Assembly (NCBI GenBank): GCA_965218795.1
Contig: OZ244653.1
Coordinates: 2,816,001-2,880,000 of the forward strand
Direction: 5' to 3'
From: a bacterium
GTDB taxonomy: Bacteria; UBA8248; JACPRG01; G963555815
DNA length: 64,000 nucleotides
The notes under the pieces were generated by a model that had not been told where the DNA came from, searched no databases, and saw only the letters and a program-made list of their open reading frames with translations. Position 1 is the first letter of the stretch, and the number at the start of each line of letters is the position of its first letter. The translations under genes and the position numbers were made by a program. This document shows positions 4,658 through 25,236 of the stretch, in pieces.

Positions 4658-6205
4658 TTGCCAGCCACGGTCCCTCGGGTTGCCATGCGGGGAATCGTCA
4701 AACGATTTCCCGGCGTTCTGGCGAACGACCGCATCGATTTTTTCCTGGAACGTGGAGAAGTGCATACGCTTCTCGGTGAGAACGGCTCCGGGAAAACGAC
4801 CTTGATGAATATTCTGGCGGGAATCTACCAGCTCGATGAAGGCGTCATCGAGTTGGACGGCCGATCCATCGATATCCGATCGCCCAAAGACGCCATCTCG
4901 GCCGGACTCGGGATGGTGCATCAGCATTTCAAGCTCGTCCCGCCGCATTCCGTGGCTGAAAACATCATTTTGGGGATGCGCGACCATGGGTGGTTGCCGG
5001 ACCTGCGCGGTGTCGAGAGGAAGCTGGAAGAATTGGCCCGCCGTTATGGTATGGGAATGGACACTCGGGTGTACGCCTCCGATTTGTCCATCGGGGAACA
5101 GCAGCAGCTGGAAATCCTCAAGGCGCTGTATCGAGGCGCCGAAATCCTCATTCTGGACGAACCCACTTCGGTTTTGACGCCGCAGGAGTCGCGGGAGCTT
5201 TTCAACACCATACGCCATATGGTCTCCGACGGTCGTTCCGTGGTCTTCATCTCTCACAAGATGGAGGAGGTGATGGCCATATCCACCCGCATTACGGTGT
5301 TGCGGCAGGGCCGGGTGGTGGCCACCCGGCGGCCGGAAGAGACCGATGAGCGGGAGTTGGCCCGACTGATGGTCGGCCGGGATGTCCTCTTCCGTCCCCA
5401 TGTGGTGGAACGGCATCCGGGCGAGGTCGTTTTAGAGCTGAAGGGCGTCCACGCTGACAACGACCGACTGCTCCCGGCCCTCAAGGACATCTCCTTTCAG
5501 GTTCATGAGGGAGAAATTTTCGGAATCGCCGGCGTTGCAGGCAACGGGCAGCAGGAACTGGGGCAGGTCATCAATGGCCTCCGTTCCATCCGCGCCGGCC
5601 AGATTTTCATCCATCGCGAACCGGTTCACAACCTGCACCCGAGCGTGATCATCGAGGGGGGCGTTGCCTATGTCCCCGCGGACCGCTCGGGCGTGGGAAG
5701 CATTCCCGGTCTTCCGATCACCGATAATGCGATCCTGAAGCGGTTCCGGGAAAAGCGGTTTCACCGCAGGGGGTTCCAGAAAAAAGGGGAGGTGGCCGGC
5801 TTTGCCGACGAGCTCATCCGCCGGTTCGAAGTCGCCGCTCCCAACCGGTTGACGCGGGCCGGGCTGCTGTCCGGCGGAAATCTCCAAAAGCTGATCCTGG
5901 CACGGGAGCTTTCCGTGGTTCCGAAGCTGCTGGTGTCCGTCTATCCAACACGCGGTTTGGACGTTGGAGCAACGGAGTTCCTCCGGAATGCCCTATTGGA
6001 CGCATGTCAGGAGGGGACGGCCATTCTGTTGATCTCCGAGGACCTGGAAGAGTTGATCGAATTGAGCGACTGCATCGCGGTTCTTTACGGCGGTGAGGTG
6101 ATGGGAATCGTCAGGTCCTCGGAGATCGATGTGGAGACTCTGGGGCTGATGATGGCGGGCCGTCGGCTGGAAGAAGCGCGGCAGACATCGGCAAACAGCC
6201 CCTGA
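4658..6205 (+). CDS. nucleoside ABC transporter ATP-binding protein (NupA/YufO-like, two NBDs)
   Basis: GENGSGKTT Walker A, LILDEPT, FISHK, LSGGNLQK, PTRGLDVGA; GGAGGAGG RBS before TTG. Confidence 0.93.
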   Translation: MPATVPRVAMRGIVKRFPGVLANDRIDFFLERGEVHTLLGENGSGKTTLMNILAGIYQLDEGVIELDGRSIDIRSPKDAISAGLGMVHQHFKLVPPHSVAENIILGMRDHGWLPDLRGVERKLEELARRYGMGMDTRVYASDLSIGEQQQLEILKALYRGAEILILDEPTSVLTPQESRELFNTIRHMVSDGRSVVFISHKMEEVMAISTRITVLRQGRVVATRRPEETDERELARLMVGRDVLFRPHVVERHPGEVVLELKGVHADNDRLLPALKDISFQVHEGEIFGIAGVAGNGQQELGQVINGLRSIRAGQIFIHREPVHNLHPSVIIEGGVAYVPADRSGVGSIPGLPITDNAILKRFREKRFHRRGFQKKGEVAGFADELIRRFEVAAPNRLTRAGLLSGGNLQKLILARELSVVPKLLVSVYPTRGLDVGATEFLRNALLDACQEGTAILLISEDLEELIELSDCIAVLYGGEVMGIVRSSEIDVETLGLMMAGRRLEEARQTSANSP

Positions 6206-6221
6206 GACAGGAGCCCGACCT

Positions 6222-7157
6222 TTGGAGCTGCTGAACTTTCTGATTCCCGTACTGCAAGCAGCGGTCCGTTCGGGCACGCCGATTCTCTTTGCCACCGTAG
6301 GAGAGATCTACGCGGAGCGTTCCGGGATTTTGAACCTGGGCGTCGAAGGCATGATGCTGGTCGGAGCGCTGGCGGGTTTTGCGGCTGCCAACCTGACGGC
6401 GAGTCCGGTTCTCGCGATAATTCTGGCCATGATCGCCGGTGGATGCATGGGGATGGTTCATGCGTTTGTCTGCATCGGCCTGCGGGCGGATCAGATCGTC
6501 AGCGGACTGGCTCTGACCCTTTTGGGAACGGGATTGACGGGATTCTTGGGACGGGCCATGGTCGGCAGGACGGCCGCGGGATTTTCGCCCGTCCTGATTC
6601 CGGGCCTCAGCGAGATTCCGGTCCTCGGGCCCGTTCTGTTCAGCCACGACTTGCTGGTGTACATTGGATACATTCTGGTTCCGATTGCATGGTTCGTTCT
6701 GTATCGCACCCGTTTGGGACTGGCCATCCGGTCCGTGGGAGAAAGTCCGGACGCCTCCGATGCAAGCGGCGTCAGCGTCAGGGGGATTCGGTATGGCTGC
6801 ACCTTTTTCGGAGGAGCCATGGCGGGGCTCGGGGGCGCTTACCTTTCGCTGGCCTATACCACCATGTGGGTGGAGCAGATGTCCGGCGGGCGCGGATGGA
6901 TTGCCCTGGCCCTGGTCGTATTTGCCGGTTGGAACCCGATGAAGGCCTTGTGGGGCGCCTATCTGTTCGGAGGGGTCGATTCGCTCAGTTTGTATCTTCA
7001 GGCCGGCGGAGCGCAGGTCTCGGCCCATATCCTCATGATGCTGCCCTATATCGTGACCATTCTTGTGCTTTGGATAGCGACCCGTCGAGTCGTCCGGGCT
7101 CGGGTCGGAGCGCCGGCCGCTCTGGGATTGGCCTACTCGCGGGAGGAAAAGCGCTGA
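6222..7157 (+). CDS. nucleoside ABC transporter permease (NupC/YufQ-like)
   Basis: ERSGILNLGVEGMM, GRGWIALALV, LPYIVTI, PAALG motifs. Confidence 0.92.
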   Translation: MELLNFLIPVLQAAVRSGTPILFATVGEIYAERSGILNLGVEGMMLVGALAGFAAANLTASPVLAIILAMIAGGCMGMVHAFVCIGLRADQIVSGLALTLLGTGLTGFLGRAMVGRTAAGFSPVLIPGLSEIPVLGPVLFSHDLLVYIGYILVPIAWFVLYRTRLGLAIRSVGESPDASDASGVSVRGIRYGCTFFGGAMAGLGGAYLSLAYTTMWVEQMSGGRGWIALALVVFAGWNPMKALWGAYLFGGVDSLSLYLQAGGAQVSAHILMMLPYIVTILVLWIATRRVVRARVGAPAALGLAYSREEKR

Positions 7158-7195
7158 CTTCCGGTCTCTTTCGACAGGGCTGCAACTCATTCTAT

Positions 7196-7876
7196 GTGTA
7201 CGACCAGGCATCATTCCTCACAGGTTGGATAAACCTCTTGCCCGTGTCGATGGGTCGGCCGCCCATGTTGCGACAGCCCTGATGAGGACGCTCGCTGTTG
7301 TAGAACTCGACGAGGTGTCTTGACGAGGCGTCTTCAGGTAAGCGTTCAGGTCCTTCTCTCGCGGCCCGTCCGTGTTGCCTGGATTCCTGCTTGCGCAGGA
7401 ATGACGAACATGGGTCGCGTGACCTCTAACCCGGTCATTCCCGCCCTCGGCAAAGACATTCGAGGACAGGCCAGCGGGAATGACAAACGAGGCCCCCGTA
7501 CAACAGCCTGTCATTCCTGTGGAAGCGGGAATCCATGCGGTATGACCCCCGTTAGAAGCGTTCGGGAGCGGGAAGGACAAACGACTCAGCCAACCCTGGA
7601 TTCCCGCCTGCGCGGGAGTGACGGGTTGGGAATCCTTGTGGCGGGTGTGGAGGCGTCGCCCCTGCCGAATACATGCAGGGCAGGCCTCCGATACGCTGCC
7701 CAGAGCCTCGGCCAGTTGCAGTGGCGCTGAGTCGCTGCTCCGCAACCTTCTTCCCTGCCCTTGCCACGGCTCCTCCCCTCTGTTCCCCGACGAAGACATT
7801 CGAGGGCAGGCATCCGGGGGAGCTCGTTTCCCCTTTGCAAGATATCAATTGTTCGGAAGATGCCTGCGTTGTACAC
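7196..7876. mobile_element. MITE-like non-coding element with terminal inverted repeats, containing REP hairpins
   Basis: Left end GTGTACGACCAGGCATC (7196-7212); right end reverse-complements to GTGTACAACGCAGGCATC; no credible ORF inside. Confidence 0.45.
7380..7623. repeat. cluster of REP-like palindromes (GTCATTCCYGC...GCRGGAATCCA family)
   Basis: Copies at 7380-7406, 7434-7484, 7510-7535 and 7597-7623 in mixed orientations; sub-motif AAGACATTCGAGGRCAGGC at about 7453 and 7793. Confidence 0.8.
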
Positions 7877-8091
7877 TTTTCAGCATAGCGCCCCGAATGC
7901 TTTTTGCTCATGGGGTGATAGGCCCCGTGGCAGCCGCGCTTGAGCGTTGCCCGGAACGACTCGATGCCGAAGGAGATTCGCGTTTTTTGAGTATGCCGAC
8001 TTATATATAATAGAGAGTGAATCTCCGAAATTCGGCGATTTCGAGGGAGAGCGGCTTAATGAAAAGAGCGGGAACAGAGAGGAGAAACACA

Positions 8092-8781
8092 GTGAAGTCT
8101 GTCGTTCGAACTCTGGCTTCAGCGTTTTGTGTGATGGGTATGGTTGGTTCCTCTGCCGCTGCCTTGGATGAGAAGCTGGAGGCTCAGCGCTTGATTGATT
8201 TGGCGCGAGTGACCGTTGAAACGATCAGGCGCAACCCCGATTTCGAGAAAGTCAACCCCCTTCTCGATCAAGCCAAAGCGGCTCTGATCATCCCGAACTT
8301 CGTAAAAGCGGGTTTCATCTTCGGCGGACAGGCCGGATCCGGTGTGCTGTTAAGGCGGAAACATGGAACCGACGATTGGGGCTACCCGGCTTTTTACAAG
8401 ATTGGAGGAGGCAGCGTCGGGCTGCAGATCGGAGTGGAAAGCGCCGAGATATTGTTTCTCATCATGACGGAAAGCGGGCTGAATTCGCTGTTGACCAACA
8501 GGGTGAAGCTGGGGGCTGATATGAGCGTGGCGCTGGGGACACTCGGAGCAGGGCTCGAAGCCGGCAAAACGGCGGTATCCATCCTGACCGATGTGTACTC
8601 CTTCTCGGTGAGCAAAGGTGTTTTCGCCGGGATATCGTTCAGTGGGGCGGTGATCTTCCCCGATACGGACCGCAATCGAGCCTACTACGGCCGACCCGTG
8701 ACGGCGACAGAAATCGTCAAAGAAAGAGCCGTGAAGAATCCGTCCGCCGAATCCCTCCGAGAGGCCTTGGCCAGGCAGTAA
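8092..8781 (+). CDS. lipid-binding SYLF (Ysc84/DUF500) domain protein, secreted
   Basis: IIPNFVKAGFIFGGQAGSGV, GGGSVGLQIG, SKGVFAGISFSGA, NRAYYG motifs; signal peptide. Alternative start at 8059. Confidence 0.88.
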   Translation: MKSVVRTLASAFCVMGMVGSSAAALDEKLEAQRLIDLARVTVETIRRNPDFEKVNPLLDQAKAALIIPNFVKAGFIFGGQAGSGVLLRRKHGTDDWGYPAFYKIGGGSVGLQIGVESAEILFLIMTESGLNSLLTNRVKLGADMSVALGTLGAGLEAGKTAVSILTDVYSFSVSKGVFAGISFSGAVIFPDTDRNRAYYGRPVTATEIVKERAVKNPSAESLREALARQ

Positions 8782-8908
8782 TCAGCCTTCCTGACAGCGA
8801 TGCCATCGCGCCCGTTTTGTTTTGGATATACCGCTGCATACGGATGAGCTCCTCCACCCCGAGGCGCCTGACAAGTACGGGTTTTTCACCATTCCAGTCC
8901 AACTCCGT

Positions 8909-11973: not shown

Positions 11974-12166
11974 ATGATGCGCCCGATTGCGTCAGATTAG
12001 GATAATTATCTGTTTTTATTTGGCTATTTCTGTTTTTTGCCCACATCCCGCCCCTTACATTCCCGTCAAGCCTGTGCTCAAATACGCACCGATTCGATGC
12101 ATCTCGTGTGCGTTTTGATTACGGAATTACCTACCGGTCACCATGGAACAAAGGCAAGGATGGTCC

Positions 12167-12937
12167 ATGCCCAGACGAAGCGAGCTCAGGATCACCAAGC
12201 GCACCGTGGATGCGCTCACCGTCGAAGCCGAGGACGCCGTCTTCTGGGACCGGGACCTGGCGGGCTTCGGGGTGCGGGTCCATGCCACCGGTCGCAAGGT
12301 CTACGTGGTTCAGTCCCGGGGGCCGGCCGGGCCGAAGCGAGTGACCCTCGGGCGGCATGGGGACCTGTCGACCGATGAGGCGAGGAAACGGGCGGCCGTG
12401 GTCATCGACCGCATCAAGCGGGGCGAGGACCCCGTGCCCGCGCCGCCCGAACCGGACCTCACCGTGGCCGAACTGGCCGAACGGTTCCTGCGCGTCCATG
12501 TCATGGTGCATTGCAAGCCGAGCACCGCCGCAACGTATCGGTTCATGCTCGACAAGCACATCTTGCCGGTGTTGGGCGGGAAGGCGATCGGCGAGGTCGG
12601 ACGACGGGAGATTTCGGCGCTGCATCACCGGCTTCGCGACACGCCGACAATGGCCAACACGGTGGTCGATATCCTGTCGAAAATGTTCTCGCTGGCCGAG
12701 GCGTGGGACCGGATACCGCCCGGACGGAACCCGTGCCGGTCGGTGCGCCGTTACAAGACGCGGTCGCGGGAGCGGTTTCTGACGCCGGAGGAGTTTAGGC
12801 GCCTGGGCCGTGTATTGAGGGATGCGGAAACGGACGGCTCGGTGTGGCCGGCGGCGATTGCGGCGCTCCGGCTGCTGATGCTGACCGGATGCCGGAAGAG
12901 CGAGATCCTGACCCTGCGCTGAGATTTCATGGATCGC
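12167..12937 (+). pseudogene. truncated tyrosine integrase with Arm DNA-binding domain
   Basis: FWDRDLAGFGVRV Arm domain and LMLTGCRKSEILTLR, then TGA where W is expected; similarity ends about 12937. A stray IHDLRHS is encoded at 13600-13620. Confidence 0.85.
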
Positions 12938-14312
12938 TTTTTCCCACGCGTTGCGGCTGTTACATAACATATTGATATTATATGTAGATATCTGTTTCTC
13001 CATGCTTCCTGACTGACGGCTACCTGCAAAGTTCAACACTATTTCAACACGGAGATCGGGTCGTACCGAGTCGCGCTCCTGACGCCGTGTGCCGCCGCCG
13101 ATCCGCCGTTTCCGCCGATTCGAGACCATCGGCCGCGCGAATCGTAGCCGTTCGGACTCCGGCCCGGAGCCGCCCCGAACCCGGAAGCCCCCCGCCGGCG
13201 AGGGCCGCAATGATGGCGTTGACCAATGCCATCGCGTTGCCGGTGCGCCGTCCGTTGCCGCGAACCAATGCCGCGGGCGATCCCGTTCCAGGCGGTTCAT
13301 CTCCATTCCGGAACGATACCGTTCTCCCGCAGGAACTCTTCCACCAGCTCCGCAATCTGCTCTTCCTAGGAGGCGTAGAAGGCATGAACCGCACCCTCGT
13401 CGCGGACGTCACGCCGTTCGTGATGGCAATCGCGATGTGTGCGGCGGCGTTGGCAGCTTGGCGCGGAATCGCTCAGACATCAAGCAGATTCCGGGCGAGG
13501 TTCGCGGCATCTGCGGGCGCATCAAGAAACACAACAGTTTCGAGTGCCATCAACCAGGAACGGGCTGCAACCGGGTCTCCTACCCTTGCTTCCGCGACGA
13601 TTCACGACCTCCGTCATTCTTGTGTAACTTTAAGGGATTTCCACGTGCTCAAAAGTCTCGTATCTGTTTGTTATCACTTGTATTTCTCACCATCAACGCA
13701 ACCCGCCTGATTACGCCTTTCCTCATTACGTAATCGTTTCGCAATCGGATCTGATCAATATCCAGGCACGACATGTCCGCGCTTGTCGTAATCGTTCGGC
13801 CAGGCCGTGATGGCGGGACCGGGGCAACGGCGGTTCGGTGTCTTGTCCGAACGTGGTCGGTCCGGCCCAGTGTCTCGGCCATCTACGACAGCGACAGGAG
13901 AATCAAGCGGTTACGGTGAACGGCCAGCATTCTAAACTTGGTCGTCATTTCCGTGAACCCACCGTCGAGCTTGGCGCAGCCGATGCCGAGTCCGCTCCAT
14001 CACGGCTTGGCCGAACAAATGCCGCTTGTCGGTAAACGATGGGGTGGACGGCCCCAGAGCGGCCGATTCCGCGCCACCACCGCGCGGAGGAAAACACGCT
14101 TTCAATCCCGGAAAACGATCCGGACGCGCATAGCGCCCGGTCCGCCGATAAGCGCCATTTATCAAAGAAGTCCTGCCCTGAAACTGACACCAACCGCAAG
14201 CCCTACGGTCGACACCTGGCCTCGCCATGGGGGGTAACTCATCAATTTCATCCATATAAGCCTTCCAGCGCTAGATTGAAGATAGTTTCCTACGCCTACG
14301 GTGTCAGAATAA

Positions 14313-16331
14313 TCATGCGCTTAACGACTGTTGTGAGCGAACCAAGAAACGATGTCTCAACGGTCGAAGTTCGTGTTCCGCCGTAATCGACAGCGTTCCA
14401 TCTTTTGCATTGCCAAGCGTCAGCCGTTTCCCAGACACCTGATTTGAACTCGTTAGTCTGCGACACATCAAGTCTGCAAGGGCGTTATCTTCGACAGCAC
14501 AAACGATCTGACGACCACTTTGGCAAAGGTGGGCAAGCACTTCGGCAAGATGAATGGCGCGAAAATCATCGACGTGCTGAACAGGATCATCGAGAAGGAT
14601 CGATCTCCATCGACTCCAAGCAATCGACAGATTCATTGAAAGTAAGAATGCCAGCCCCGTTGCGCGACGTTGGCCACTAGAAAATACGAATTGTGGATTG
14701 ACATCGCCACCCACCTGCAACTTTAGAAACCGTCTAACGTCGCCTCGAACGCTATACTCAATATCGTCCCAAATCGGGTGAGGCCGAAGCCGTTTGTAAA
14801 GTTCAGACATCAATGGGAGTACTCGGTCTAGGCGCTGGTCCAACGATTCTGCAGCAGCGCGTCTCACAGCGTCGTGAACTACCTTAGCCCGTGTTTCCGC
14901 GAGACGAACTCGTCCGAGCCGCACCTCGGATCGTTCCACCCGCTCTCTTTCGTCTCTATGAACTTCCAACGCCTTCGTCAGCACTTGATTAAGGGCCATT
15001 GTGTCAAGAATTTTCAGTTCCTTCTCAATTGCAGCACGCTCACTCTCCAGCCCAACGACCTGCCCCGCTAAGCTATCAGGCGTAGCACCCGCAAGGCCGA
15101 CCGCCTCTTGAAAAGACTCAAAATCCCCAATCCTCGATAATGCTACATTTTGATGCTCAATAGCCGCATCCAGTTCACGTTTTGCAATTGCTACGCGCTC
15201 TGTTATTTCGGTGAGAGCTCGTTCCCTTTCTGCCTGTTCGACCGCTTGAGCGTCAAGTTGGCGAGCAATGGTCAGAGCAGATTCCAGACCTTCTATAAAG
15301 GCCGTCTCGCTGATTTCACTCTCACAAAGCGGGCAATGTCCCGCTCTAGTCCCAATCGCTCTCCCCAAATTGACAAGGCTTTCAAGTTGACGGGCTTCCA
15401 ATGAGATATCTGTTGATTCGAGTTTGGCACCTATGGTCGCCTTTCTGGACTCTAATTCCTCAGTGGCAGAAACCCATGCCATTTCTGCGTTCTTTACTCG
15501 TCTTTTGAGTTCGGAGAGATTAGTCCTCACTTGCTCTACTTCGGATAAGCGTTGTAAAAAACTATTTACCAGTTCCAGACGTGTTTGAAGCTCCGCGGTC
15601 CTTAGACGAGCAATATCGCCTAGCTCATCCGCAGGAGCCGTTGTATTTAGAAGAGATTGAAGACGTGTAACTGCGGTGCCAAGAAGGGACTCTGCAGTCA
15701 ATTCTGATCGAACCTGATCGAGATGCCTAACAGAGTTAGCGAGATTGCTATTAGCCTGTTCGAGTTCTACTACCGCAGTTTCAACTTTCTTTGACGCCGT
15801 TGATACGATCCTTGAAGCCTTGCTGATCCATTCCTCGGCATCAACCGCACCGATTGCGTCACGCAGCAACGTAAATCTTTCTCCTTCCTTCAAGTCAAGA
15901 CTGAGACGAGCAATATGTTCATCCCTTATGATAGTTGCAGCACAAAGTTGCGTGATTGCAGTTTTTGGGGAAAAGTCTCTATCAACCAGCTTCTCTATCG
16001 CGTGGGAAACGTCAAGGTCGACAGCGTCGAACGGCGTCCTTTTTACCGAATATTGTTCTGCACCATCATCAAAACCCACCTCTACGTAGCGTTCTCCTTG
16101 AACGTCACCGTCACCGCTCCACCAAAGATAGTCGTCAACAGACTCGCCCGATGCCCTTGCATCCAGGTATTTTGAAATTGATCCAGTTAGGGCAAATTCA
16201 ACCGCGTCGAAAATCGTACTCTTTCCAACTCCGTTTCGGCCATCGATGATGGTAAACGTATCAGAAAAGGAAATGTGGATTGGTCCGCTAAATCCACGAA
16301 AGCCACACAGATCGACGAACGCGAGTTTCAT
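14313..16331 (-). CDS. Rad50/SbcC/SMC-like ABC ATPase (LmuB-like)
   Basis: GRNGVGKST Walker A, long coiled coil with central CPLC zinc hook, FSSGQ signature, LLDDPVQHVD Walker B/D-loop. Confidence 0.88.
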   Translation of the reverse strand: MKLAFVDLCGFRGFSGPIHISFSDTFTIIDGRNGVGKSTIFDAVEFALTGSISKYLDARASGESVDDYLWWSGDGDVQGERYVEVGFDDGAEQYSVKRTPFDAVDLDVSHAIEKLVDRDFSPKTAITQLCAATIIRDEHIARLSLDLKEGERFTLLRDAIGAVDAEEWISKASRIVSTASKKVETAVVELEQANSNLANSVRHLDQVRSELTAESLLGTAVTRLQSLLNTTAPADELGDIARLRTAELQTRLELVNSFLQRLSEVEQVRTNLSELKRRVKNAEMAWVSATEELESRKATIGAKLESTDISLEARQLESLVNLGRAIGTRAGHCPLCESEISETAFIEGLESALTIARQLDAQAVEQAERERALTEITERVAIAKRELDAAIEHQNVALSRIGDFESFQEAVGLAGATPDSLAGQVVGLESERAAIEKELKILDTMALNQVLTKALEVHRDERERVERSEVRLGRVRLAETRAKVVHDAVRRAAAESLDQRLDRVLPLMSELYKRLRPHPIWDDIEYSVRGDVRRFLKLQVGGDVNPQFVFSSGQRRATGLAFLLSMNLSIAWSRWRSILLDDPVQHVDDFRAIHLAEVLAHLCQSGRQIVCAVEDNALADLMCRRLTSSNQVSGKRLTLGNAKDGTLSITAEHELRPLRHRFLVRSQQSLSA

Positions 16332-16864
16332 TCCCTGTTCTCCAAGAATTGAAATAACACAGAATCGCTCGCATTTGACAGAAATCCCTCGACCAATTCC
16401 GCAGGAAGTTCCGATGTGCGAAGCCTAATCTCAGCCATCATGTCAACCTTATCCAACCGAGGCGCATTCTGTACGCCTAGAAGCGGCATCAACGCGCTTC
16501 GCAATTCCTCAGCATGAGCAACACCAGCACGTGCTATCTTCCTCGTCCCAACAAGATCCTCTTCAATATTACCGAGGATAATATTTTGGCCGTAGTCACC
16601 CACTTCATCTGCCAATAGTACCAAATAGGCATTCCACGATTTCTCTCCTGCTTGTCGTAGAGACAATTGTGCGTGTTCCAGAATGCGCAAGGAAGATGTT
16701 CTCCAATTCTCTATCAATGTAGCTGCATCCGGATAGTGGTGAACAAAACCCAATACCGTATCGTTTTCGAACGTTGTAACGGTACCGTCTTGGGCCTCAA
16801 GGGTACCAATGCTATATCCCGCGCTTGATAAGTATTTATGCAACCTTGACTTCGTATTATTCAT
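16328..16864 (-). CDS. ABC three-component system middle-component-like protein (LmuC-like position)
   Basis: 178 aa; KSWNAYLVLL...IEEDL..TRKIA resembles ABC-3C MC1; ATGA overlaps with both neighbours. Confidence 0.6.
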   Translation of the reverse strand: MNNTKSRLHKYLSSAGYSIGTLEAQDGTVTTFENDTVLGFVHHYPDAATLIENWRTSSLRILEHAQLSLRQAGEKSWNAYLVLLADEVGDYGQNIILGNIEEDLVGTRKIARAGVAHAEELRSALMPLLGVQNAPRLDKVDMMAEIRLRTSELPAELVEGFLSNASDSVLFQFLENRE

Positions 16865-18186
16865 AGGTCGAACTCCTTAACCGCATCACCCCGCGAAAGC
16901 CATTTTCCGCTCGGCCCGCGGACGATGGACCCGTTGCCGGAACCTCTCGCTATGTTAGGGGGTAGTAAGTATGACTCGGCGCCTACGGCAACAGTAACAT
17001 CTGGAGCAATCGCTGGTGGTAACTTACCAGAAAAAGCAGCCTTGACTTCGTGGAGCGGCTGGTTCGCTGAGCGAACCACGCGGATTCGTGTTTCTCCGAG
17101 TTTCCAATAGCTTCCATCGGACACCGCCCCACGCGCTTGGAGTTGAAGAATAGTCATCCCGATCAGCGGCTCATCGGCTGGATCACGCTGCTTGGCAGGT
17201 TTGTTCGGTTTGCACCCTTCAAGGTCACGCCTCATCTGCCACAGTATTTCAGGATCTTCAGAACCAGGTTCCAACCAAGCGGCGGTGGCATCGTAACCTG
17301 CGTTTTCTTGAAATGCGGTCTTTCCGGAATGCAAGATACGGCGGATGAAGGATTTTGAGAAATCAACGCGAAGTCTTTTGAGAAAGGTGTCACTTGAACT
17401 GCGTACGTGGACAAAATCCATTGTGGCCCGCCGCCCAAGACTATAAAGGGCCGGTGCTTTTTCCTCGAATTCCGCAGTTTCGCAAGGATCGACAACGATA
17501 ACGCGGCTGGGATTGACCGTTCCAAGAGAATTTTCAAGAACTTGATTTAGGTAATCCCAATCAGTCGAATAACCTACAACCAAGAGATCGCGGTTTGCCA
17601 AACGTGTTTCTAGCCACTGCGCACACTCGCCGATCCTTGTCATGATCGGATCCGTGTCGATCTGGTTTGTTGCCCATATCGTCCCTACCGGATCATTCCA
17701 GCATCCGTGAATCTTTAGAAGCGGAGCCTTGTCATCAGGAAGGTTTAACATGTGCATGCGGCATACACCCGATCCAATGTGGCCGAACAACATATTTCCA
17801 GCAGCTTCAATAAGCGTATCAACATTGGTGGAAACAGTCGTCTTTATTCCTCCGGTAAGCATTAGATCAGCTACGGAGAAATGTCCAGAATTGGGCCATC
17901 CTGAAAATGCGTCGCGATCAATGTATGTACGTAAGTAGACAGTATAGAGCTCGTCTTGATTAAAGAAAAACTGCGCCTGATCTTCGATTGCCTCTGGAAG
18001 TGGCGGGCGAGTGGAACCAAAGGTCGCATCGTACTTCTCTTTGGCACTATGTGCCAACTGCGCTGCACTAGGGATTGAGCTTGGTGCAGCCATCGACAAT
18101 CCTGCCCCACACAGAAGTGCCAGACGATTGTTCAACAAAGCATCCATAGCTTTGTCGACACCATCTTGGAAAGCAATTTCTTTCAT
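16861..18186 (-). CDS. SIR2-family (SIR2_2) putative NADase effector
   Basis: LLCGAGLS, STNVDTLIE, LLKIHG, LLVVGYS sirtuin motifs; extra C-terminal region of about 150 aa. Confidence 0.85.
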   Translation of the reverse strand: MKEIAFQDGVDKAMDALLNNRLALLCGAGLSMAAPSSIPSAAQLAHSAKEKYDATFGSTRPPLPEAIEDQAQFFFNQDELYTVYLRTYIDRDAFSGWPNSGHFSVADLMLTGGIKTTVSTNVDTLIEAAGNMLFGHIGSGVCRMHMLNLPDDKAPLLKIHGCWNDPVGTIWATNQIDTDPIMTRIGECAQWLETRLANRDLLVVGYSTDWDYLNQVLENSLGTVNPSRVIVVDPCETAEFEEKAPALYSLGRRATMDFVHVRSSSDTFLKRLRVDFSKSFIRRILHSGKTAFQENAGYDATAAWLEPGSEDPEILWQMRRDLEGCKPNKPAKQRDPADEPLIGMTILQLQARGAVSDGSYWKLGETRIRVVRSANQPLHEVKAAFSGKLPPAIAPDVTVAVGAESYLLPPNIARGSGNGSIVRGPSGKWLSRGDAVKEFDL

Positions 18187-18827
18187 ATCAGTGTTTTGAC
18201 CCTACTAATTGTGCTTCCACGCTGTCGTACCTTATTCTGCCTATCTATCTCGATATACAACCGTGAAGAGTTAATTTCAAATTCGATGCATTCGAAATGG
18301 ACGGACACTTTCGAGTTGGTATTAGTCGCGATGTTAGGACAGACCACATCATCTCCTTGTCCCTAGCAAGCGTGCCGGTAATCGGATTCTCCATTAACAC
18401 CTACTCCTTTAATATTGATTGCTTCGTAGCGACGCCGCAAGCCGCATCCTGATTCCTCCATCATTGTATCGAAACCGCACCGATTCCACATTCTGTTCCC
18501 TGCTGACGGCATATGTCGTCTTGGCTGGTCCTTTTCCCCTTCATCTCCGACGCACGCGGCGCCGTGGGCGCAAATCTCTCGAACGCATGGCCGTGACTAC
18601 AGCATCGGTGTTTTCTGTCGAAAGGTACATGCCCGCTAGGTACCACGAAAAACACGCGATCTCGATCCCAAACTCTCGGGGATCGCCCTATGATATCCAA
18701 TCCGTACGATTTGGTGCGGCCATACAGGATTTTGTCGCCCCGGATGCGCGTTTTGCCTCCCGAAGGTCGTGGCTGTGGTTAGGCGGTTGAAACGTCCGGG
18801 GTCCGATTGGAGTTGACCCGGGCGATT

Positions 18828-19824
18828 TCAAGCGGTCAACGGAACGGTCTTGGCGAAGACCTCACATGGTGTCATCCAGCCGAGCGTTTGTCGAGGGCGG
18901 GCGTTGAACTCTCGAGCGACGGCGTCGAGCTCGTCCTGGGAGTGGAGGGATAGGTCAGTCCCCTTCGGGAAGTACTGACGCAAGAGACCCTTGGTGTTCT
19001 CGCTCGTTGCGCGCTGCCATGGGCTTTTCGGATCGCAGAAGTAGACGGCAACGCCGGTCTCGATGGTGAAGCGGACGTGCTCGGCCATCTCCTTGCCCTG
19101 GTCCCAGGTGAGCGTGCAACGGAGTTGGTTGGGCAAAGCCGTCAACTGTTCGGCGAGGACCCGCCGAACCTCAGGAGCCCCCCGCCCGTCCGGAAGGTGG
19201 AGGAGCAGCACATAGAGACTCCTCCGCTCGACCACCCCACCGATGGCTGAGTGACCTACCTCGCCAAGGATCAGGTCCCCCTCCCAATGCCCCGGGATGG
19301 CCCGATCGGAAGCCTCAGGCGGTCGTTCGGCGATCGAGACCATGTTGCGCAGCCGGCCGGCACCGTCGAGCCGTCGCCGAGAATGTCTGCGTGTGCGTCG
19401 GGTTCGCAGATACGCTGTGAGCTCTTTACGGAGCGCCCCGCGGGCTTGGACGAACAAGGACCGATAGATCGTCTCGTGAGACACATGCATCTCGGGACCG
19501 TCAGGATGCTCGAGCTTGAGGCGATGGGCAATCTGCTCCGGGGACCAGCGCTGGGCGAGCCACCGCTCTACCTTCGCACGCAGCCGTGGGTTGCGTGCCA
19601 GCTTCGCCGTCTTCGGTCGGCGCGCCATTCTCCTCGCCCGCCGCTCGGCTCGCCAGGCTCGATATCGGTTCCGAGATCCGTTGGCGACTACTTCCCGCGA
19701 GATGGTTGAGGGCGCTCGATTCAGCCGCCTGGCGATCGCTCTGAACGAATCGCCAGCCTTCAACCCTCGTGAAATCTCCTCTCGCTCCCCAACCGTCAGT
19801 CGAAGTGGAGAACGCACTCGCCGA
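18828..19824 (-). pseudogene. IS30 transposase, C-terminal part
   Basis: VSHETIY, GHWEGDLI, LTWDQGKEMAEH, SPWQR..EN, RQYFPKG motifs. Confidence 0.9.
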
Positions 19825-19893
19825 TGACCTGCCCCCTTCAAACGGGTCCAGTTTATAAATGAGTATTCCTGGATTTTCGGAAGGAGGGGAAGG

Positions 19894-20172
19894 ATGGCAA
19901 GGAAGCGGTTTACGGCCGAGCAGATCATCATCAAGCTGCGAGAGGCGGAGGTGGCCCAGTCCCAGGGGAAGACGGTAGGCCAGGTGTGCAAGCAGATCGG
20001 GGTGACGGAGCAAACCTACTACCGGTGGAGGAAGGAGTACGGGGGTCTGAGGATGGACCAGGCCAAGCGTCTGAAGTCCCTGGAGCAGGAGAATGCCCGG
20101 CTGAAGAAGCTGGTGGCGGATCTGTCCCTGGACAACCAGCTCCTGAAGGAAGTCTCCTCGGGAAACTTCTAA
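19894..20172 (+). CDS. IS3 transposase OrfA
   Basis: HTH EQTYYRWRKEYGG; ends at a GGGAAAC slippery site. Confidence 0.9.
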   Translation: MARKRFTAEQIIIKLREAEVAQSQGKTVGQVCKQIGVTEQTYYRWRKEYGGLRMDQAKRLKSLEQENARLKKLVADLSLDNQLLKEVSSGNF

Positions 20173-21065
20173 GCCCGGCGAAGCGGAGACGAGTCGTGGT
20201 ATGGGTCAGAGAGCGATTCGGGCCTGAGCGAGTCTTCGAGCGTCGGGCCTGCCGCGTGCTGGGACAGGCCAGATCGACCCAACGAAGAATCCCGCAGTTC
20301 CCCAAGGAAGAGGCGCAACTGGTGATCCGGATGGTGGAACTGGCCAGTCAGTACGGCCGATACGGCTACCGGAGGATCACGGCCATGCTTCGTTGGGAGG
20401 GGTGGAAGGTGAACCACAAGCGCGTGGAAAGGCTCTGGAGGCAGGAGGGGCTGAAGGTCCCGTCCAGACAGCCGAAACGCAGGAGACTGTGGCTCCATGA
20501 CGGCTCTTGCGTGCGCCTGAGACCGACTCATCGGAACCATGTCTGGAGCTATGACTTCATGCATGAGCGCACCCAAGAAGGGAGGGCTTTCCGGCTGCTG
20601 ACCATTTTGGATGAGTACAGCCGAGAATGTATATCCATTGATGTCCAAAGGCAGATGAATCACCAGGATGTGCTGGAGCGGTTGGCAGAGTTGTTTGTGG
20701 GCCGGGGCGTCCCTGAATACCTCCGGTCAGATAACGGGTCGGAGTTCACAGCGAGGGTGGTCAGGCACTGGCTCAAGGCGGTTGGCGTGAGGACATTGTA
20801 TATCGAGCCAGGGAGTCCCTGGGAGAACGGATATGTGGAGAGTTTCAACGGGAAGCTGAGGGATGAGCTCCTGAACGTGGAGAGCTTCGAGACCCTGAAA
20901 GAGGCCCAGGTGCTGGTGGAGAGGTGGAGGCGGGAGTACAACCAGCGACGGCCTCACAGTGCCTTGGCCTACCGGCCACCCGCACCAGAGGCCAGATTCC
21001 CAAGAACCCAAGCCCTGGCGCCGGTTCCCCGGAGTGGACTGCAAAGGGTCCCGTGTCTAACGTAG
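20169..21065 (+). CDS. IS3 transposase OrfB (DDE, -1 frameshift fusion)
   Basis: WSYDF, LRSDNGSEF, PWENGYVESFNG, HSAL motifs. Confidence 0.9.
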   Translation, partial: LSPAKRRRVVVWVRERFGPERVFERRACRVLGQARSTQRRIPQFPKEEAQLVIRMVELASQYGRYGYRRITAMLRWEGWKVNHKRVERLWRQEGLKVPSRQPKRRRLWLHDGSCVRLRPTHRNHVWSYDFMHERTQEGRAFRLLTILDEYSRECISIDVQRQMNHQDVLERLAELFVGRGVPEYLRSDNGSEFTARVVRHWLKAVGVRTLYIEPGSPWENGYVESFNGKLRDELLNVESFETLKEAQVLVERWRREYNQRRPHSALAYRPPAPEARFPRTQALAPVPRSGLQRVPCLT

Positions 21066-21337: not shown

Positions 21338-21624
21338 CTCCTCCTTCTGTACGGAGCCGCTTTGCGGCTCGGAGAGGCGCTGCGCCTCACGCTGGCGGAC
21401 ATCGACCTGTCGGCTGTGGTGCTGACCGTGCGCGACACGAAGCTCTACAAGAGTCGCCTCGTTCCACTCGGATCACAACTCGCCCATGTGCTGATAACAT
21501 ATGCGGCGCGGCGTGCGGGGCGTTCTCTCCCGGAGGGGAAGGATTCTGAACGTGAAAGCTTATGTTGCGGTGATTTAGGGTCCGAGCTGAGCTGGCAAAC
21601 GGCACCACGATCACCGCAACATAA
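21338..21624 (+). mobile_element. RIT (recombinase-in-trio)-like remnant: integrase fragment plus terminal inverted repeat
   Basis: LLLLYGAALRLGEALRL...RDTKLYKSRLVPL fragment followed by a perfect 15-bp IR TTATGTTGCGGTGAT / ATCACCGCAACATAA (21560-21574 and 21610-21624). Confidence 0.65.
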
Positions 21625-21625
21625 C

Positions 21626-21862
21626 GACACTCACATCACCAACGAGCATTGCCGTGCGTTCAATGCATTGACCAACGGACAATATCGAAATTTTTGTCTC
21701 TTTTCCTGTTCCTGCGACGGCCACCCCGCGGTTGCCATCGCGGCCGTCAACGTCCGTCCGTCCGGCGAAGAGGGCGGCGAGGACGAATACCGCGTTCAGC
21801 CCCTGTTCGTCTCTGTGACCCCCTCGATGAAACTCACCGACCACGACGGCCGGGAGGCCTGA
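21626..21862 (+). pseudogene. small ICE hypothetical protein lacking its start
   Basis: Coherent frame HITNEHCRAFNALTNGQYRNFCLFSC...DGREA* starting right after the RIT-like end. Confidence 0.4.
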
Positions 21863-21994
21863 GCGGCCATCCACCGGTCACATCCCCCGGCCTTGCCTGT
21901 CGCCACCGGGAGGCGAGGCCGGCTCGGGGATGGGCGAAGGCCGGACGTCCGAGGGGGTGTCCGCGCCGCGGCTTCCCTTCGTCCGGAGACTGCC

Positions 21995-23020
21995 ATGACC
22001 GATCCCGACACCATCTCCGCCGACTATTCCCTGCGCCCTAGCGAGCTCGCCGGGACCCTGTCCCTGCTGGTCGAGGCCCGCCAGCCGGCCATAGTCTGGG
22101 GGCCGCCCGGATGCGCCAAGTCCCGGATCGCCCAACAGGTCGCCGCCGATGCGGGCCGCGAGTACGTCGACGTCCGCGCCCTGCTGCTCGATCCCGTCGA
22201 TCTGCGCGGCATCCCGTGGCGCGACGCCGCCGACCGCACCCGCTGGGCGCCCCCGGCCTTCCTTCCTCCGTCGGATCAAGAGGGCCGCTGGCTCGTCAAC
22301 CTGGAGGAGCTGCCCTCGGCCGCACCCATGGTCCAGGCGGCCCTGTACCAGCTCGTGCTCGACCGGCGCTGCGGCGAGTACGAGCTCCCCGACGGCGCCT
22401 CGCTCATCGCCTGCGGTAACCGGGAGAGCGACCGCGGCGTCACCCACCGCATGCCCACCCCGCTCGCGTCTAGGTTCGTCCATCTGGAGATCCGTGTGGA
22501 TGTCCCGGACTGGTGCGCCTGGGGCGCGGCCAACGGCATCGCGCCCGAGGTGCTCTTCTTCATCCAGATGCGGCCCGAGCTGCTGCACCAGTTCGACCCG
22601 CAGTCGCGGGAGAAGGCCTTTCCCTGTCCGAGGACCTGGGAGTTCGTCTCCAACATCGTGCACCGAAGGAACGGCCTCGACCCCGTGGCCGAGCGAGCCC
22701 TGTTCCGGGGCGCCGTGGGCGAGGCCGCCGCGGTGGAGTTCTCGGCCTTTCTCAAGGTCTGGCGCGAGCTGCCCCATCCCCGGGCCGTGATCGACGATCC
22801 GGAGAATGCCGCCGTCCCCGACAACGCCAGCGCGCTCATCGCCCTCTGCGGCTCCCTCTACCGGCTCGCCGACGACATCAACCTCAAGGCCATCGTGACC
22901 TACGCCACGAGGCTCAGGCGCGAGGTCGGCGAGTTTCTGGTGGGTTCGTGCATCCGCCGCGACCCGGCGCTCCAGCACAGCCCGGCCTTCATCCAGTGGG
23001 CGGCCGCCAGGACCCAGTGA
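21995..23020 (+). CDS. MoxR-like AAA+ ATPase
   Basis: WGPPGCAKS Walker A, LVNLEEL Walker B variant, ACGN sensor 1, LASRF Arg finger, PCPRTW; GGAG RBS. Confidence 0.85.
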   Translation: MTDPDTISADYSLRPSELAGTLSLLVEARQPAIVWGPPGCAKSRIAQQVAADAGREYVDVRALLLDPVDLRGIPWRDAADRTRWAPPAFLPPSDQEGRWLVNLEELPSAAPMVQAALYQLVLDRRCGEYELPDGASLIACGNRESDRGVTHRMPTPLASRFVHLEIRVDVPDWCAWGAANGIAPEVLFFIQMRPELLHQFDPQSREKAFPCPRTWEFVSNIVHRRNGLDPVAERALFRGAVGEAAAVEFSAFLKVWRELPHPRAVIDDPENAAVPDNASALIALCGSLYRLADDINLKAIVTYATRLRREVGEFLVGSCIRRDPALQHSPAFIQWAAARTQ

Positions 23021-23044
23021 CACCCCATTTCGGAGATCAACACC

Positions 23045-23944
23045 ATGAACCTTACCCATGATGCGATGCTGGTCAGCCTCAGGATCAACGCCTGGTCGGG
23101 CAGGCTCTACGACCGCCAGGCCAGCCGTCACGTGGCCATCCATCACGACGCCAGCGCGAGCGCCGGGCGTTACAACAAGCGCCTTTTGCCCAAGCCGGCT
23201 TTCGCCGCGCTCTCCGCGGCCATGAACAGGGCCCGGACCACCCATTACGAGAACACCCTGCCCTGGGACGACCAGGGGCCCCGCCTGCTCACCGTGGCCA
23301 ACTACGACCGCTACACGGCCGAGCTCGACGCCTTGAGCGAGCGCGTGGTGCGGGAACGCGCCCGCTTCATCCAGGATTACGACGATTACGTCGACCAGGC
23401 CCGTCTCGACCTCGGCCGGCTGTTCCGCATCGAGGACTATCCCTCCAAGGACTCGCTCCGGGACAGGTTTTCCGTCGCCTATCGCATCGTCCCGGTCCCC
23501 GACGCGGACCATTTCATGGCGGAGCTCGCTTCGGGCGACGCCGACCGGGTCAAGCGGGATATCGAGCAACAGGTCCGGGACCGTCTGAACGACGCGGTGA
23601 GCGACCTCTACCGGCGCCTGGGCGAGGCGGTCGATCACGTGGGCGAGCGCCTGCGCGAGGACGGGGAGGGAAAACCCCTGGTGTTCCGCGACAGCCTGAT
23701 CGAGAACATCCGAGGCCTGGTGGACGTGGCGCCAAGGCTCAACATCTTCGGCGACGACCATCTGGCCATGCTGTGCCAGGAGGTCAAGGACCGGATCGCG
23801 GGCGTCGAGCCGGATACGCTCAGACCCTCGCGACAATTCGATCCGGCCGTCCGCCGACAGGTCAAGCGCGACGCCGACGAACTCGCGGCCCGGTTCGCCG
23901 GCTACTTCGCGCCATCGGCCACCACGGACCGGGAGGCGGCCTGA
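23045..23944 (+). CDS. DUF3150-like hypothetical protein
   Basis: 299 aa, MLVSLRINAWSG start, TLPW...GPRLL, mostly helical; lies between AAA and vWA genes. Confidence 0.55.
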   Translation: MNLTHDAMLVSLRINAWSGRLYDRQASRHVAIHHDASASAGRYNKRLLPKPAFAALSAAMNRARTTHYENTLPWDDQGPRLLTVANYDRYTAELDALSERVVRERARFIQDYDDYVDQARLDLGRLFRIEDYPSKDSLRDRFSVAYRIVPVPDADHFMAELASGDADRVKRDIEQQVRDRLNDAVSDLYRRLGEAVDHVGERLREDGEGKPLVFRDSLIENIRGLVDVAPRLNIFGDDHLAMLCQEVKDRIAGVEPDTLRPSRQFDPAVRRQVKRDADELAARFAGYFAPSATTDREAA

Positions 23945-25236
23945 TGGCCGGCCGGGCCCGATCGGAATCAGGGCGGCGGGTCAGCGATTGCGTGACCGCC
24001 TTGCTCCGGGATCAGCCCTTCTTCGGCAGCCTGGCGCTGAGATTGCCCATCCGTGCCGACCCGAGCCGCGAGACCCTGGCGAGCGATGGCAAGGACATCC
24101 GGTTTTCACCCCAATGGGTCGCAAGGGCCGACGCCGACTGGATCAAGACCGCGATCGGCCGCGTGGTCCTGGCCTGCGCGCTCAAGCACCACACCCGACG
24201 GGGCGACCGCGACCCGGAACGCTGGCAACGGGCCTCCCAGCTCGTCACGCACGGGCTTCTGCGCGACGCGGGGTTCAATCTGCCGCCCGATGCCGATGCA
24301 TGGGACGACATCAGCGTGGAGCAGGCCTATGACCGCCTCCCGGAACCGAAGGACGACCCGGACGACAAGGACGGCGGAACCCCGTCCAAAGGCCCGGCAG
24401 GTTCATCAGCCAGTAACAACAGCGATTCCGACGGGTCTCCGGACTCCACGGACGCCGACGGCGAGACGGAGCCGGGTAACCAGAACCCGTCCCCACCGAG
24501 CTTCGATCCCTCGGGCACGGGCGAGGTCATGGACGCGGGCGCCCGTTGTGACGACGGCGGTGACACGGACGATCCGCTCGACACCGCGGCCGAGGAGCAG
24601 GCCTGGGACGAGGCCATGCACCAGGCCGCGAGCCTCGCCCGGGCCCAGGGCAAAGCGCCGGGCGCAATCGAGGAGGCGATCCGGGACGCCCATTGCAGCG
24701 TTCTCGACTGGCGGGCCCTCCTGCGCCGCTACATGGTCGATGCGGCCCGTCGGGACTACAGCTGGAGCTTTCCCAACGGGCGCTTCATCGACCAAGGTCT
24801 CTACCTGCCGTCTATCCGCTCCGAGGGGATCGATACCATCGCCGTCATCATCGACACCTCGGCCTCCCTGCCTGCCGAGACGCTCTCCGTGTTCTGGTCC
24901 GAGGTCCGGGAGATCGCCGCCGAGTTGCAGCCCGACTCCGTTCTCGTCCTGCAGGTCGATGCCGCCCTGCAGGATGCCACCGAGTATTCGGCCGGCGACC
25001 TGCCCGAGCGCATCGCGTTGAAGGGTAGAGGCGGTACGGACTTCCGGCCGGGTTTTGCATGGCTCGCCGAGCACGGACAGCGGCCGGGCTGCTGCCTCTA
25101 TCTCACCGACATGGAGTGCCATCGCTACCCCGAGATCGAGCCGGACTTTCCGGTGATCTGGTGCGACTGGGGGCCGGGGCCCGGGGAGTGGAACCGCGAG
25201 CCCTGGGGCGAGCGCATCGACATCAAGACGGCGTGA
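23944..25236 (+). CDS. DUF2201 family metallopeptidase-like / vWA-like protein
   Basis: QPFFGSLAL, T.ASDG, LKHHTR, acidic linker, IDTSAS MIDAS, GRGGTDFRP, YLTD; start overlaps the previous stop. Confidence 0.85.
   Translation: MAGRARSESGRRVSDCVTALLRDQPFFGSLALRLPIRADPSRETLASDGKDIRFSPQWVARADADWIKTAIGRVVLACALKHHTRRGDRDPERWQRASQLVTHGLLRDAGFNLPPDADAWDDISVEQAYDRLPEPKDDPDDKDGGTPSKGPAGSSASNNSDSDGSPDSTDADGETEPGNQNPSPPSFDPSGTGEVMDAGARCDDGGDTDDPLDTAAEEQAWDEAMHQAASLARAQGKAPGAIEEAIRDAHCSVLDWRALLRRYMVDAARRDYSWSFPNGRFIDQGLYLPSIRSEGIDTIAVIIDTSASLPAETLSVFWSEVREIAAELQPDSVLVLQVDAALQDATEYSAGDLPERIALKGRGGTDFRPGFAWLAEHGQRPGCCLYLTDMECHRYPEIEPDFPVIWCDWGPGPGEWNREPWGERIDIKTA

Follow-up and report, generated by a model that had tools for sequence, protein, structure and literature searches.

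A probable Lamassu operon with a SIR2 effector on a degraded integrative island of a bacterium of the UBA8248 lineage

Three adjacent genes were examined in a 64,000-nucleotide stretch of the genome of a bacterium of the GTDB lineage UBA8248 (GenBank assembly GCA_965218795.1, contig OZ244653.1, positions 2,816,001 to 2,880,000), which is referred to here as the window and to which all coordinates below refer. The genes lie on the minus strand and, in the order in which they would be transcribed, are lmuA (16861-18186), which encodes a predicted SIR2 effector of 441 aa and was assigned from the list of open reading frames (ORFs) with Pfam and Foldseek; lmuC (16328-16864), which encodes a middle component (MC) of the MC1 type of 178 aa and was assigned from the ORF list and from the MComp1 and PADLOC matches of its family; and lmuB (14313-16331), which encodes a Rad50/SMC-like ABC ATPase of 672 aa with a coiled coil and a zinc hook and was assigned with the PADLOC LmuB model, Pfam, NCBIfam and the PDB. 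The three genes probably constitute an intact Lamassu operon of the ABC three-component (ABC-3C) type, with the composition lmuA(SIR2)-lmuC-lmuB and belonging to the Rad50-like, long MC1-type form, which was gained horizontally on an integrative island that is now degraded.

A preliminary description of this locus, made from the letters of the DNA, had reported three genes joined by two ATGA overlaps and more AT-rich than their flanks, and both observations held. The ORFs occur at the exact coordinates given above and the junctions could be read directly; both are ATGA (in the contexts ctATGAat and gaATGAaa), so that the stop of each gene shares four bases with the start of the following one. 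A Shine-Dalgarno-like AAGGAG is found before the lmuC start and GGAG before the lmuB start. The GC content of the operon is 0.495, against 0.654 for the whole window, and the GC content at third codon positions (GC3) is 0.43-0.48 in the operon genes, compared with 0.72-0.89 in four neighbouring genes. The positions of the sirtuin and Rad50 motifs named in that description were verified through translation of the exact coordinates.

The SIR2 domain of LmuA covers approximately residues 1-262 and is followed by a C-terminal docking domain (CTD) at residues 262-441. Pfam SIR2_2 was matched at residues 117-237 (E 1.8e-8), as it was in 18 of 20 members of the LmuA family, for which 456 homologues were found, mostly of 441-442 aa. 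The AlphaFold2 (AF2) model of LmuA had a predicted local distance difference test score (pLDDT) of 79.3 and a predicted template modelling score of 0.80, and a Foldseek search with it returned ThsA first (3.8e-8), followed by SPARSA, DSR2 and KomC, all of which are SIR2 proteins of defence systems and share 14-18% sequence identity with LmuA. When the family profile was compared with the PDB, the two best matches were again ThsA (6.4e-6) and KomC (7.1e-6). The NAD-binding loop GAGLS (residues 27-31; 18094-18108, minus strand), the Asn and Asp at the catalytic position of TNVD (N121-V-D123; 17818-17826, minus strand) and the catalytic His of KIHG (H160; 17707-17709, minus strand) were all read from the translation, and G27-S31, N121, D123 and H160 were invariant in alignments of 24 and 20 SIR2 proteins. 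In the profile alignment the family motif STNVD, which contains N121, aligns to TTNYD of ThsA and KomC, and H160 (KxHG) aligns to H146 of KomC, which is mutated in the PDB entry bearing the title KomC(H146N). As judged from these matches, LmuA is a SIR2 protein with its catalytic Asn and His in place and is closest to the NAD+-hydrolysing enzymes (NADases) of defence systems.

It is conceivable that LmuA, under the control of the same Lamassu-type sensor, uses NAD+ to modify a target instead, attaching ADP-ribose to a protein or nucleic acid or deacylating it; the outcome would then be inhibition of that target and not depletion of NAD+. The SIR2 fold supports several NAD-dependent chemistries, LmuA weakly matches protein deacylases in NCBIfam (E 4e-4 to 0.06, well short of the cut-offs), and the family profile also matches the classical Sir2 deacetylase structure 1m2k (E 1.4e-5). 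The top Foldseek matches, in contrast, are all to defence NADases, as are the two best profile matches, and the Pfam family found in LmuA is SIR2_2, the deacetylase family SIR2 being matched by only 2 of the 20 members (E 0.039). Target modification is thus given a small probability, and hydrolysis of NAD+ is the preferred activity for LmuA. ThsA (of Thoeris), DSR2, the SIR2-APAZ protein of SPARSA and KomC have in common with LmuA the SIR2 fold, the NAD-binding loop and the Asn and His catalytic positions, and in the solved entries matched their activity accompanies oligomeric assembly, as judged from the PDB titles (helical ThsA, tetrameric SPARSA, a DSR2 tetramer and a KomC helix). They differ in their sensors, which are a SLOG domain with a cyclic nucleotide, the phage tail tube, and Argonaute with a guide, and none of which is an SMC-like ATPase.

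The CTD of LmuA comprises 180 aa (16864-17403, minus strand), in which the AF2 secondary structure places helices at residues 265-351, an RRDxEG loop at 319-324 and a beta-sheet at 355-431; R319, D321, E323 and G324 of the loop are invariant in the LmuA alignment. A profile of the CTD only, built from 30 sequences (that of the window and 29 of the 79 loci having a CTD match), was run against 1.84 billion representatives and matched 293 proteins at E <= 0.001. Among the best 150 of these 293 matches, 96 are at least 380 aa long and 95 of the 96 have the SIR2 domain of this family. A Pfam scan of 10 of the 150 found SIR2_2 in 9, and no other effector domain was seen among the best 150 of the 293. 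The exception among the 96 is a metagenomic protein of 655 aa (P0247) in which the C-terminus of a SIR2 protein (231-435) is fused to residues 116-559 of LmuB; it was considered as a new architecture and rejected, being either a deletion across lmuC or an assembly artefact. A fold search of the ESM Atlas with one homologue (P0072) yielded scores of 0.80-0.81, no better than noise. Pfam CTD1 (PF20276) was looked for in 51 genomes of the host's phylum and in 14 control genomes; it was found in neither set, and with the controls equally empty the result is uninformative.

LmuB was matched by the PADLOC LmuB model PDLC03859 at E 2.9e-34, with residues 19-623 aligned on profile positions 18-593 of 611. 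Pfam AAA_23 and SMC_N were above their cut-offs, the NCBIfam Rad50 model was matched at E 5.8e-16, far below its equivalog cut-off, and Rad50/SMC structures in the PDB were matched by the single sequence and by the family profile. Invariance was judged in an alignment of 25 sequences. The Walker A motif GRNGVGKS (16218-16241, minus strand) has G31, N33, G34, G36, K37 and S38 invariant. The zinc hook CPLC (residues 333-336; 15324-15335, minus strand) lies in the middle of the coiled coil and is the sole CxxC of the protein, with C333, P334 and C336 invariant, and the ABC signature SSGQ (14670-14681, minus strand) is invariant throughout. The Walker B motif and D-loop, SILLDDPVQHVDD (14565-14603, minus strand), are of the hhhhDD type, the Walker B reading ILLDD, with L580, D581, D582, P583, Q585, H586, D588 and D589 invariant. 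The Q-loop position (residues 136-138) reads RDE, and the H-loop position (residues 613-615) reads VED, without a histidine, E614 and D615 being invariant. These two positions and the DD of Walker B suggest that LmuB may be an ATP-binding switch in which hydrolysis is slow. Among the NCBIfam and PDB sequences matched by LmuB, the best belong to the SbcCD/Mre11-Rad50 group, with which it shares ABC heads, an antiparallel coiled coil and the CxxC hook. It differs from that group in that the window system has no nuclease subunit and a much shorter coiled coil, and in that LmuB has Asp in place of the Walker B Glu and Glu in place of the H-loop His.

For LmuC, 293 homologues were found, nearly all of 177-179 aa, and the window protein shares 53-98% identity with the listed family members. 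Matches were counted over 33 members, made up of the window protein, 15 of 120 listed homologues and 17 ORFs from related loci. Pfam MComp1 (ABC-3C middle component 1) was matched by 23 of the 33 (best E 8.2e-6) and the PADLOC LmuC model PDLC03873 by 21 of the 33 (best E 1.4e-5). Judged from these profile matches, LmuC is a member of the described LmuC/MC1 type at the family level only, and at that level the preliminary suggestion of an MC1-like middle protein was right. Its AF2 model (pLDDT 89.3) begins with an alpha/beta domain (residues 1-130), which a linker joins to three short helices (142-175). A Foldseek search with this model gave no match at E <= 0.001, and SbcD/Mre11 was absent from the fold-search matches listed. 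The LmuC of long Lamassu systems is described as derived from the C-terminus of SbcD/Mre11 (10.1101/2025.03.14.643221; PMC12663957).

When one genome was scanned for each species, relatives of the SIR2 protein turned up in 131 stretches, and 80 loci were kept. In 80/80 of these related loci the genes are adjacent, on one strand and in the order SIR2, MC, ATPase (tblastn). In 70 loci LmuB is encoded by an intact ORF of 669-688 aa; in seven the best LmuB alignment starts inside the query and not at its start, and in the remaining three the ORF is shortened (481 aa, 89 aa and one interrupted by the end of its contig). The hosts include Alpha-, Beta- and Gammaproteobacteria, a Thermoanaerobaculia metagenome-assembled genome (MAG), an Acidobacteriaceae MAG, a planctomycete and others. 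All ORFs of at least 60 aa within 3.5 kb on each side of 81 loci were clustered, and no flanking family was present in more than 18 of the 81 or included the window, nor was there an extra conserved gene such as a methylase, indicating that the unit is the three genes. By these comparisons the system is intact, and selection maintains the three genes together. The linkage of effector, middle component and Rad50-like ATPase, the SIR2 effector of an ABC-3C/Lamassu family and the intactness of the sirtuin and Rad50 motifs had all been put forward in the preliminary description; the motifs are all present and invariant in the family alignments and the linkage is conserved. The genes are therefore read as effector, MC and ATPase, with a putative SIR2 NADase, because of the family matches, the conserved linkage and the intact catalytic motifs.

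In 2022 Millman et al. (bioRxiv 10.1101/2022.05.11.491447) reported Lamassu systems armed with a sirtuin effector, and Haudiquet et al. (PNAS 2025, PMC12663957) split Lamassu into short and long forms. The short form has an LmuB of about 600 aa with a Walker B of hhhhD[Q/S/T/E] and 0-2 CxxC motifs. In the long form LmuB has about 800 aa, its Walker B is hhhhDD and it contains one CxxC; LmuC carries a further short domain, which follows a linker, and the CTD of LmuA combines helices and a beta-sheet with an acidic loop. Both forms include systems with Sir2 effectors, which were independently acquired (PMC12663957). The Rad50-like sub-family is described as having CTD1-5, a Mre11-like MC1 and an LmuB of 800-1000 aa (10.1101/2025.03.14.643221); the MC and CTD definitions used here were taken from that work and from 10.1101/2025.06.23.660979.

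The window system was placed with the long type because of the ILLDD of its Walker B, its single CPLC, its MC1-type LmuC with a small extra domain and its alpha/beta CTD, the extra domain of LmuC and the layout of the CTD being seen in the AF2 models only. It shares with long Lamassu-Sir2 the order lmuA-lmuC-lmuB, the SIR2 domain at the N-terminus of LmuA and the MC1-type LmuC with a small domain, and with long Lamassu the hhhhDD Walker B, the single CxxC hook and an alpha/beta CTD with a conserved acidic loop. It differs from them in the length of LmuB (672 aa in the window and 669-688 aa in 70/80 loci), which falls between the roughly 600 aa of the short and the roughly 800-1000 aa of the long systems, the published lengths being averages and not cut-offs. 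It also differs in having a CTD with no Pfam CTD match and a SIR2 protein with no PADLOC LmuA match. On these features the system bears the qualitative marks of the long, Rad50-like sub-family, yet its LmuB is compact family-wide. As Lamassu-Sir2 has been published since 2022, the window operon is of an already known kind and is not a new system. The preliminary suggestion of an uncharacterised subtype was therefore overstated, the long and short forms of Lamassu-Sir2 having been catalogued in 2025 and the MC1 type being a named sub-family.

A stronger claim can be made from the same differences, namely that the clade with a SIR2-CTD protein of about 440 aa, an MC1 of 178 aa and an LmuB of 670-690 aa is a distinct and unmodelled Lamassu lineage between long and short, with a CTD that co-evolved exclusively with the SIR2 effector. 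This appears unlikely. If it were true, the clade would offer a first route to how a Lamassu sensor switches on an NADase instead of a nuclease.

Several results weigh against the explanation preferred here. No PADLOC model of LmuA matched the window protein itself, and the model PDLC03856 was touched by just 2 of the 20 family members (E 0.0062). The Lamassu profiles of PADLOC 2.0, which bear on the novelty claimed in the preliminary description, thus recognise LmuB strongly, LmuC through its family members only, and LmuA essentially not at all. The LmuC of the window was matched by no PADLOC model, and on its own it reached E 0.0062 and 16.8 bits against Pfam MComp1, for which the cut-off is 27.3. 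None of the Pfam ABC-3C CTD models matched any of the 20 LmuA family members at E <= 0.1, in agreement with the earlier remark that the C-terminus of the SIR2 protein was unrecognised. LmuB, at 672 aa, is shorter than the approximately 800-1000 aa stated for the Rad50-like sub-family, and the Glu at its H-loop position together with the Asp at the catalytic position of Walker B implies that ATP hydrolysis may be slow or absent. Searches of the PDB sequences with phmmer for each protein and with hmmsearch for the family profiles reached no LmuA, LmuB, LmuC or Ddm chain, so that the mechanism set out below is borrowed from a different sub-family (Cap4-CTD7-MC3). In the literature searched, no experimental work on any Lamassu-Sir2 was found.

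The missing PADLOC LmuA and Pfam CTD matches would also suit a convergent three-gene system, unrelated to Lamassu, in which an SMC-like ATPase was paired with a SIR2 protein by chance. Such a coincidence is scarcely credible beside a match to LmuB over its full length, LmuC/MC1 matches in most family members, and the canonical gene order in 80/80 loci with no additional conserved gene such as a methylase among them. Membership of Lamassu therefore remains the probable reading of the operon.

Docking was predicted with four chains, LmuB 1-200, LmuB 470-672, LmuC and, as the partner, the CTD, using our own alignments. The predicted docking of the CTD on the LmuB head and LmuC scored 0.46 (runs of 0.46, 0.39 and 0.52), the best of three controls scoring 0.00. 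Of 80 solved complexes 58 reach the mark used, as do 2 of 110 mismatched pairs, and scores of <= 0.60 held only 7 of the 80 solved complexes and both of the passing mismatches; these calibration counts are rough here because of the alignments and the four chains. Between runs the contacts agreed to at least 0%, and the partner had a pLDDT of at least 74. The prediction gives weak support to a complex of the CTD with the LmuB head and LmuC; it counts in favour of the assignment, and its weakness counts against it.

The following mechanism is proposed because of the analogy with solved Lamassu complexes that have nuclease effectors, and it is by this analogy that we infer that the proteins form a complex, that DNA is sensed, and that the effector is released, oligomerises and acts as an NADase. 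Two LmuB subunits linked through the CPLC zinc hook would, together with LmuC, keep one LmuA monomer inactive via its CTD. The ATP-binding heads and coiled coils of LmuB would sense aberrant DNA of replicating phages or plasmids, such as free ends and hairpins or palindromes, and this sensing would lead to the release of LmuA. The freed SIR2 domains could then self-associate and hydrolyse NAD+, by which the infected cell would be stopped (abortive infection).

The solved Lamassu systems are Cap4-CTD7-MC3 and the type I Cap4-CTD12 (10.1101/2025.06.23.660979). DdmABC of Vibrio cholerae and the solved complexes (9NY5, 9NYG and 9UX7 onwards) have the same three-component logic as that proposed here: an ATPase dimer is the sensor, the middle protein is small, and the effector is kept bound through its CTD. 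They are activated by DNA ends or palindromes, whereupon the effector is released and oligomerises. They differ from the window system in having a nuclease effector, a helical-bundle CTD, an MC3 and a Walker B of hhhhD[QSTE], and in the absence of a zinc hook.

The value of the locus is that it appears to hold a clean, intact and well-delimited Lamassu with a SIR2 enzyme in the Rad50-like sub-family, the mechanistic work found in the literature being on nuclease (Cap4) effectors of the other sub-family only. A SIR2-armed system with a zinc hook and a compact LmuB would be convenient for asking whether release and oligomerisation also govern NADase effectors, and it would suit the question of how a Mre11-like LmuC and an alpha/beta CTD sit on Rad50-like heads. 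Its particular points of interest are the compact LmuB that carries long-type marks and the unmodelled CTD, which occurs with SIR2 only among the best 150 of 293 matches. There is also a use for annotation, as the PADLOC 2.0 profiles recognise just LmuB in the window copy and the RefSeq labels for the relatives are generic.

The genome consists of one contig of 5.17 Mb, in which the system occurs once. A search of 40 related genomes, 29 of them at least 90% complete and <= 5% contaminated, did not find the SIR2 gene in any; the collection searched held only 51 species genomes of the host's phylum. To one side of the operon lies a truncated integrase of the P4 type, in which the arm-binding, SAM-like and central domains are present and the catalytic domain is missing (12143-12922, plus strand). 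On the other side are an IS30-like transposase (IS, insertion sequence; 18828-19991, minus strand), an IS3-like orfA/orfB pair (19894-21065, plus strand) and a second integrase fragment consisting of part of a tyrosine-recombinase catalytic domain (21362-21862, plus strand). These integrase fragments and IS elements around the operon, with the absence of the gene from the related genomes searched, bear out the earlier description of it as island cargo. The nearest relatives are proteobacterial, with up to 64% identity among loci from genomes, and this, combined with the GC3 contrast, indicates transfer between phyla. Horizontal acquisition is the simplest reading of the setting in which the operon is found.

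Eleven plasmid records matched the system and seven of the 11 are typed as conjugative, relatives on large Rhizobium plasmids having 47-61% identity. This distribution, together with the position of the window copy amid integrase and IS remnants beside a region resembling an integrative conjugative element, could mean that the operon serves mainly in competition between mobile elements, through plasmid exclusion or stabilisation of its carrier, and not in phage defence. DdmABC Lamassu was first found as a plasmid-restriction module, as reported in 10.1101/2025.03.14.643221. Such a role is compatible with phage defence, the tested Lamassu systems protecting against phages and plasmids alike (10.1101/2022.05.11.491447), and the sequence does not distinguish the two roles; a main function in element competition is regarded as improbable, and a defence operon gained with its island is preferred.

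One of the plasmid copies, on the conjugative plasmid pTA1_2 of Rhizobium ruizarguesonis (NZ_CP088106.1, 662 kb), lies at 4917-8880 of that record and is 61% identical. A small recombinase gene stands directly upstream of it and a gene for a caspase-family protein 2.3 kb downstream. The RefSeq names for this copy are only SIR2 family protein, hypothetical protein and AAA family ATPase.

The intergenic region upstream of the operon (18187-18827, minus strand) is presumed to hold the promoter. It has no promoter-like sites above the shuffled expectation and no DNA similarity to the 80 related loci. A terminator-like GC-rich hairpin of 8 pairs, 7 of them G-C, lies 173 nt past the lmuB stop (14120-14140, minus strand) and is a weak candidate because such sites are no more numerous than in shuffles. 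The operon might be a silent passenger of a decaying island, no longer expressed or functional in its host, and the neighbouring integrase without a catalytic domain, the two IS elements inserted upstream and the missing promoter-like site would fit this. The three ORFs are, on the other hand, full length against the family (441, 178 and 672 aa), every invariant family residue examined is retained, and the translational coupling is intact. Loss of function is accordingly considered very improbable, and the operon is taken to be intact within an island that has degraded around it.

A 49-aa ORF preceded by an AAAGGAG Shine-Dalgarno motif is present at 18245-18394 (minus strand), separated by 58 nt from the SIR2 start downstream of it. 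No relative occurs in the 80 related loci (best E 0.53), and the ORF is therefore unlikely to be a gene. Near 13650 an HDLRH-like motif occurs in another frame from that of the truncated integrase, and may be a remnant of the C-terminus of that protein.

Beyond the second integrase fragment, a block with a GC content of about 0.70 (21893-25236, plus strand) encodes a MoxR-like AAA_5 ATPase (a weak match, E 4.6e-4) and then a DUF2201 metallopeptidase/VWA-like protein. A 1497-aa helicase of the Strawberry-notch type (AAA_34 and Helicase_C_4) is encoded at 31062-35555 (plus strand). A set of MoxR-like ATPase, DUF2201 protein and Strawberry-notch helicase is often found on integrative conjugative elements. 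Further along, at 42630-56096 (plus strand), there is an ORF of 4488 aa that contains Calx-beta domains and 10 He_PIG Ig-like stretches; the region around it has a GC content of about 0.74 and a strongly positive AT skew (0.13-0.21). From its domains, this ORF probably encodes a huge surface or adhesin-type protein.

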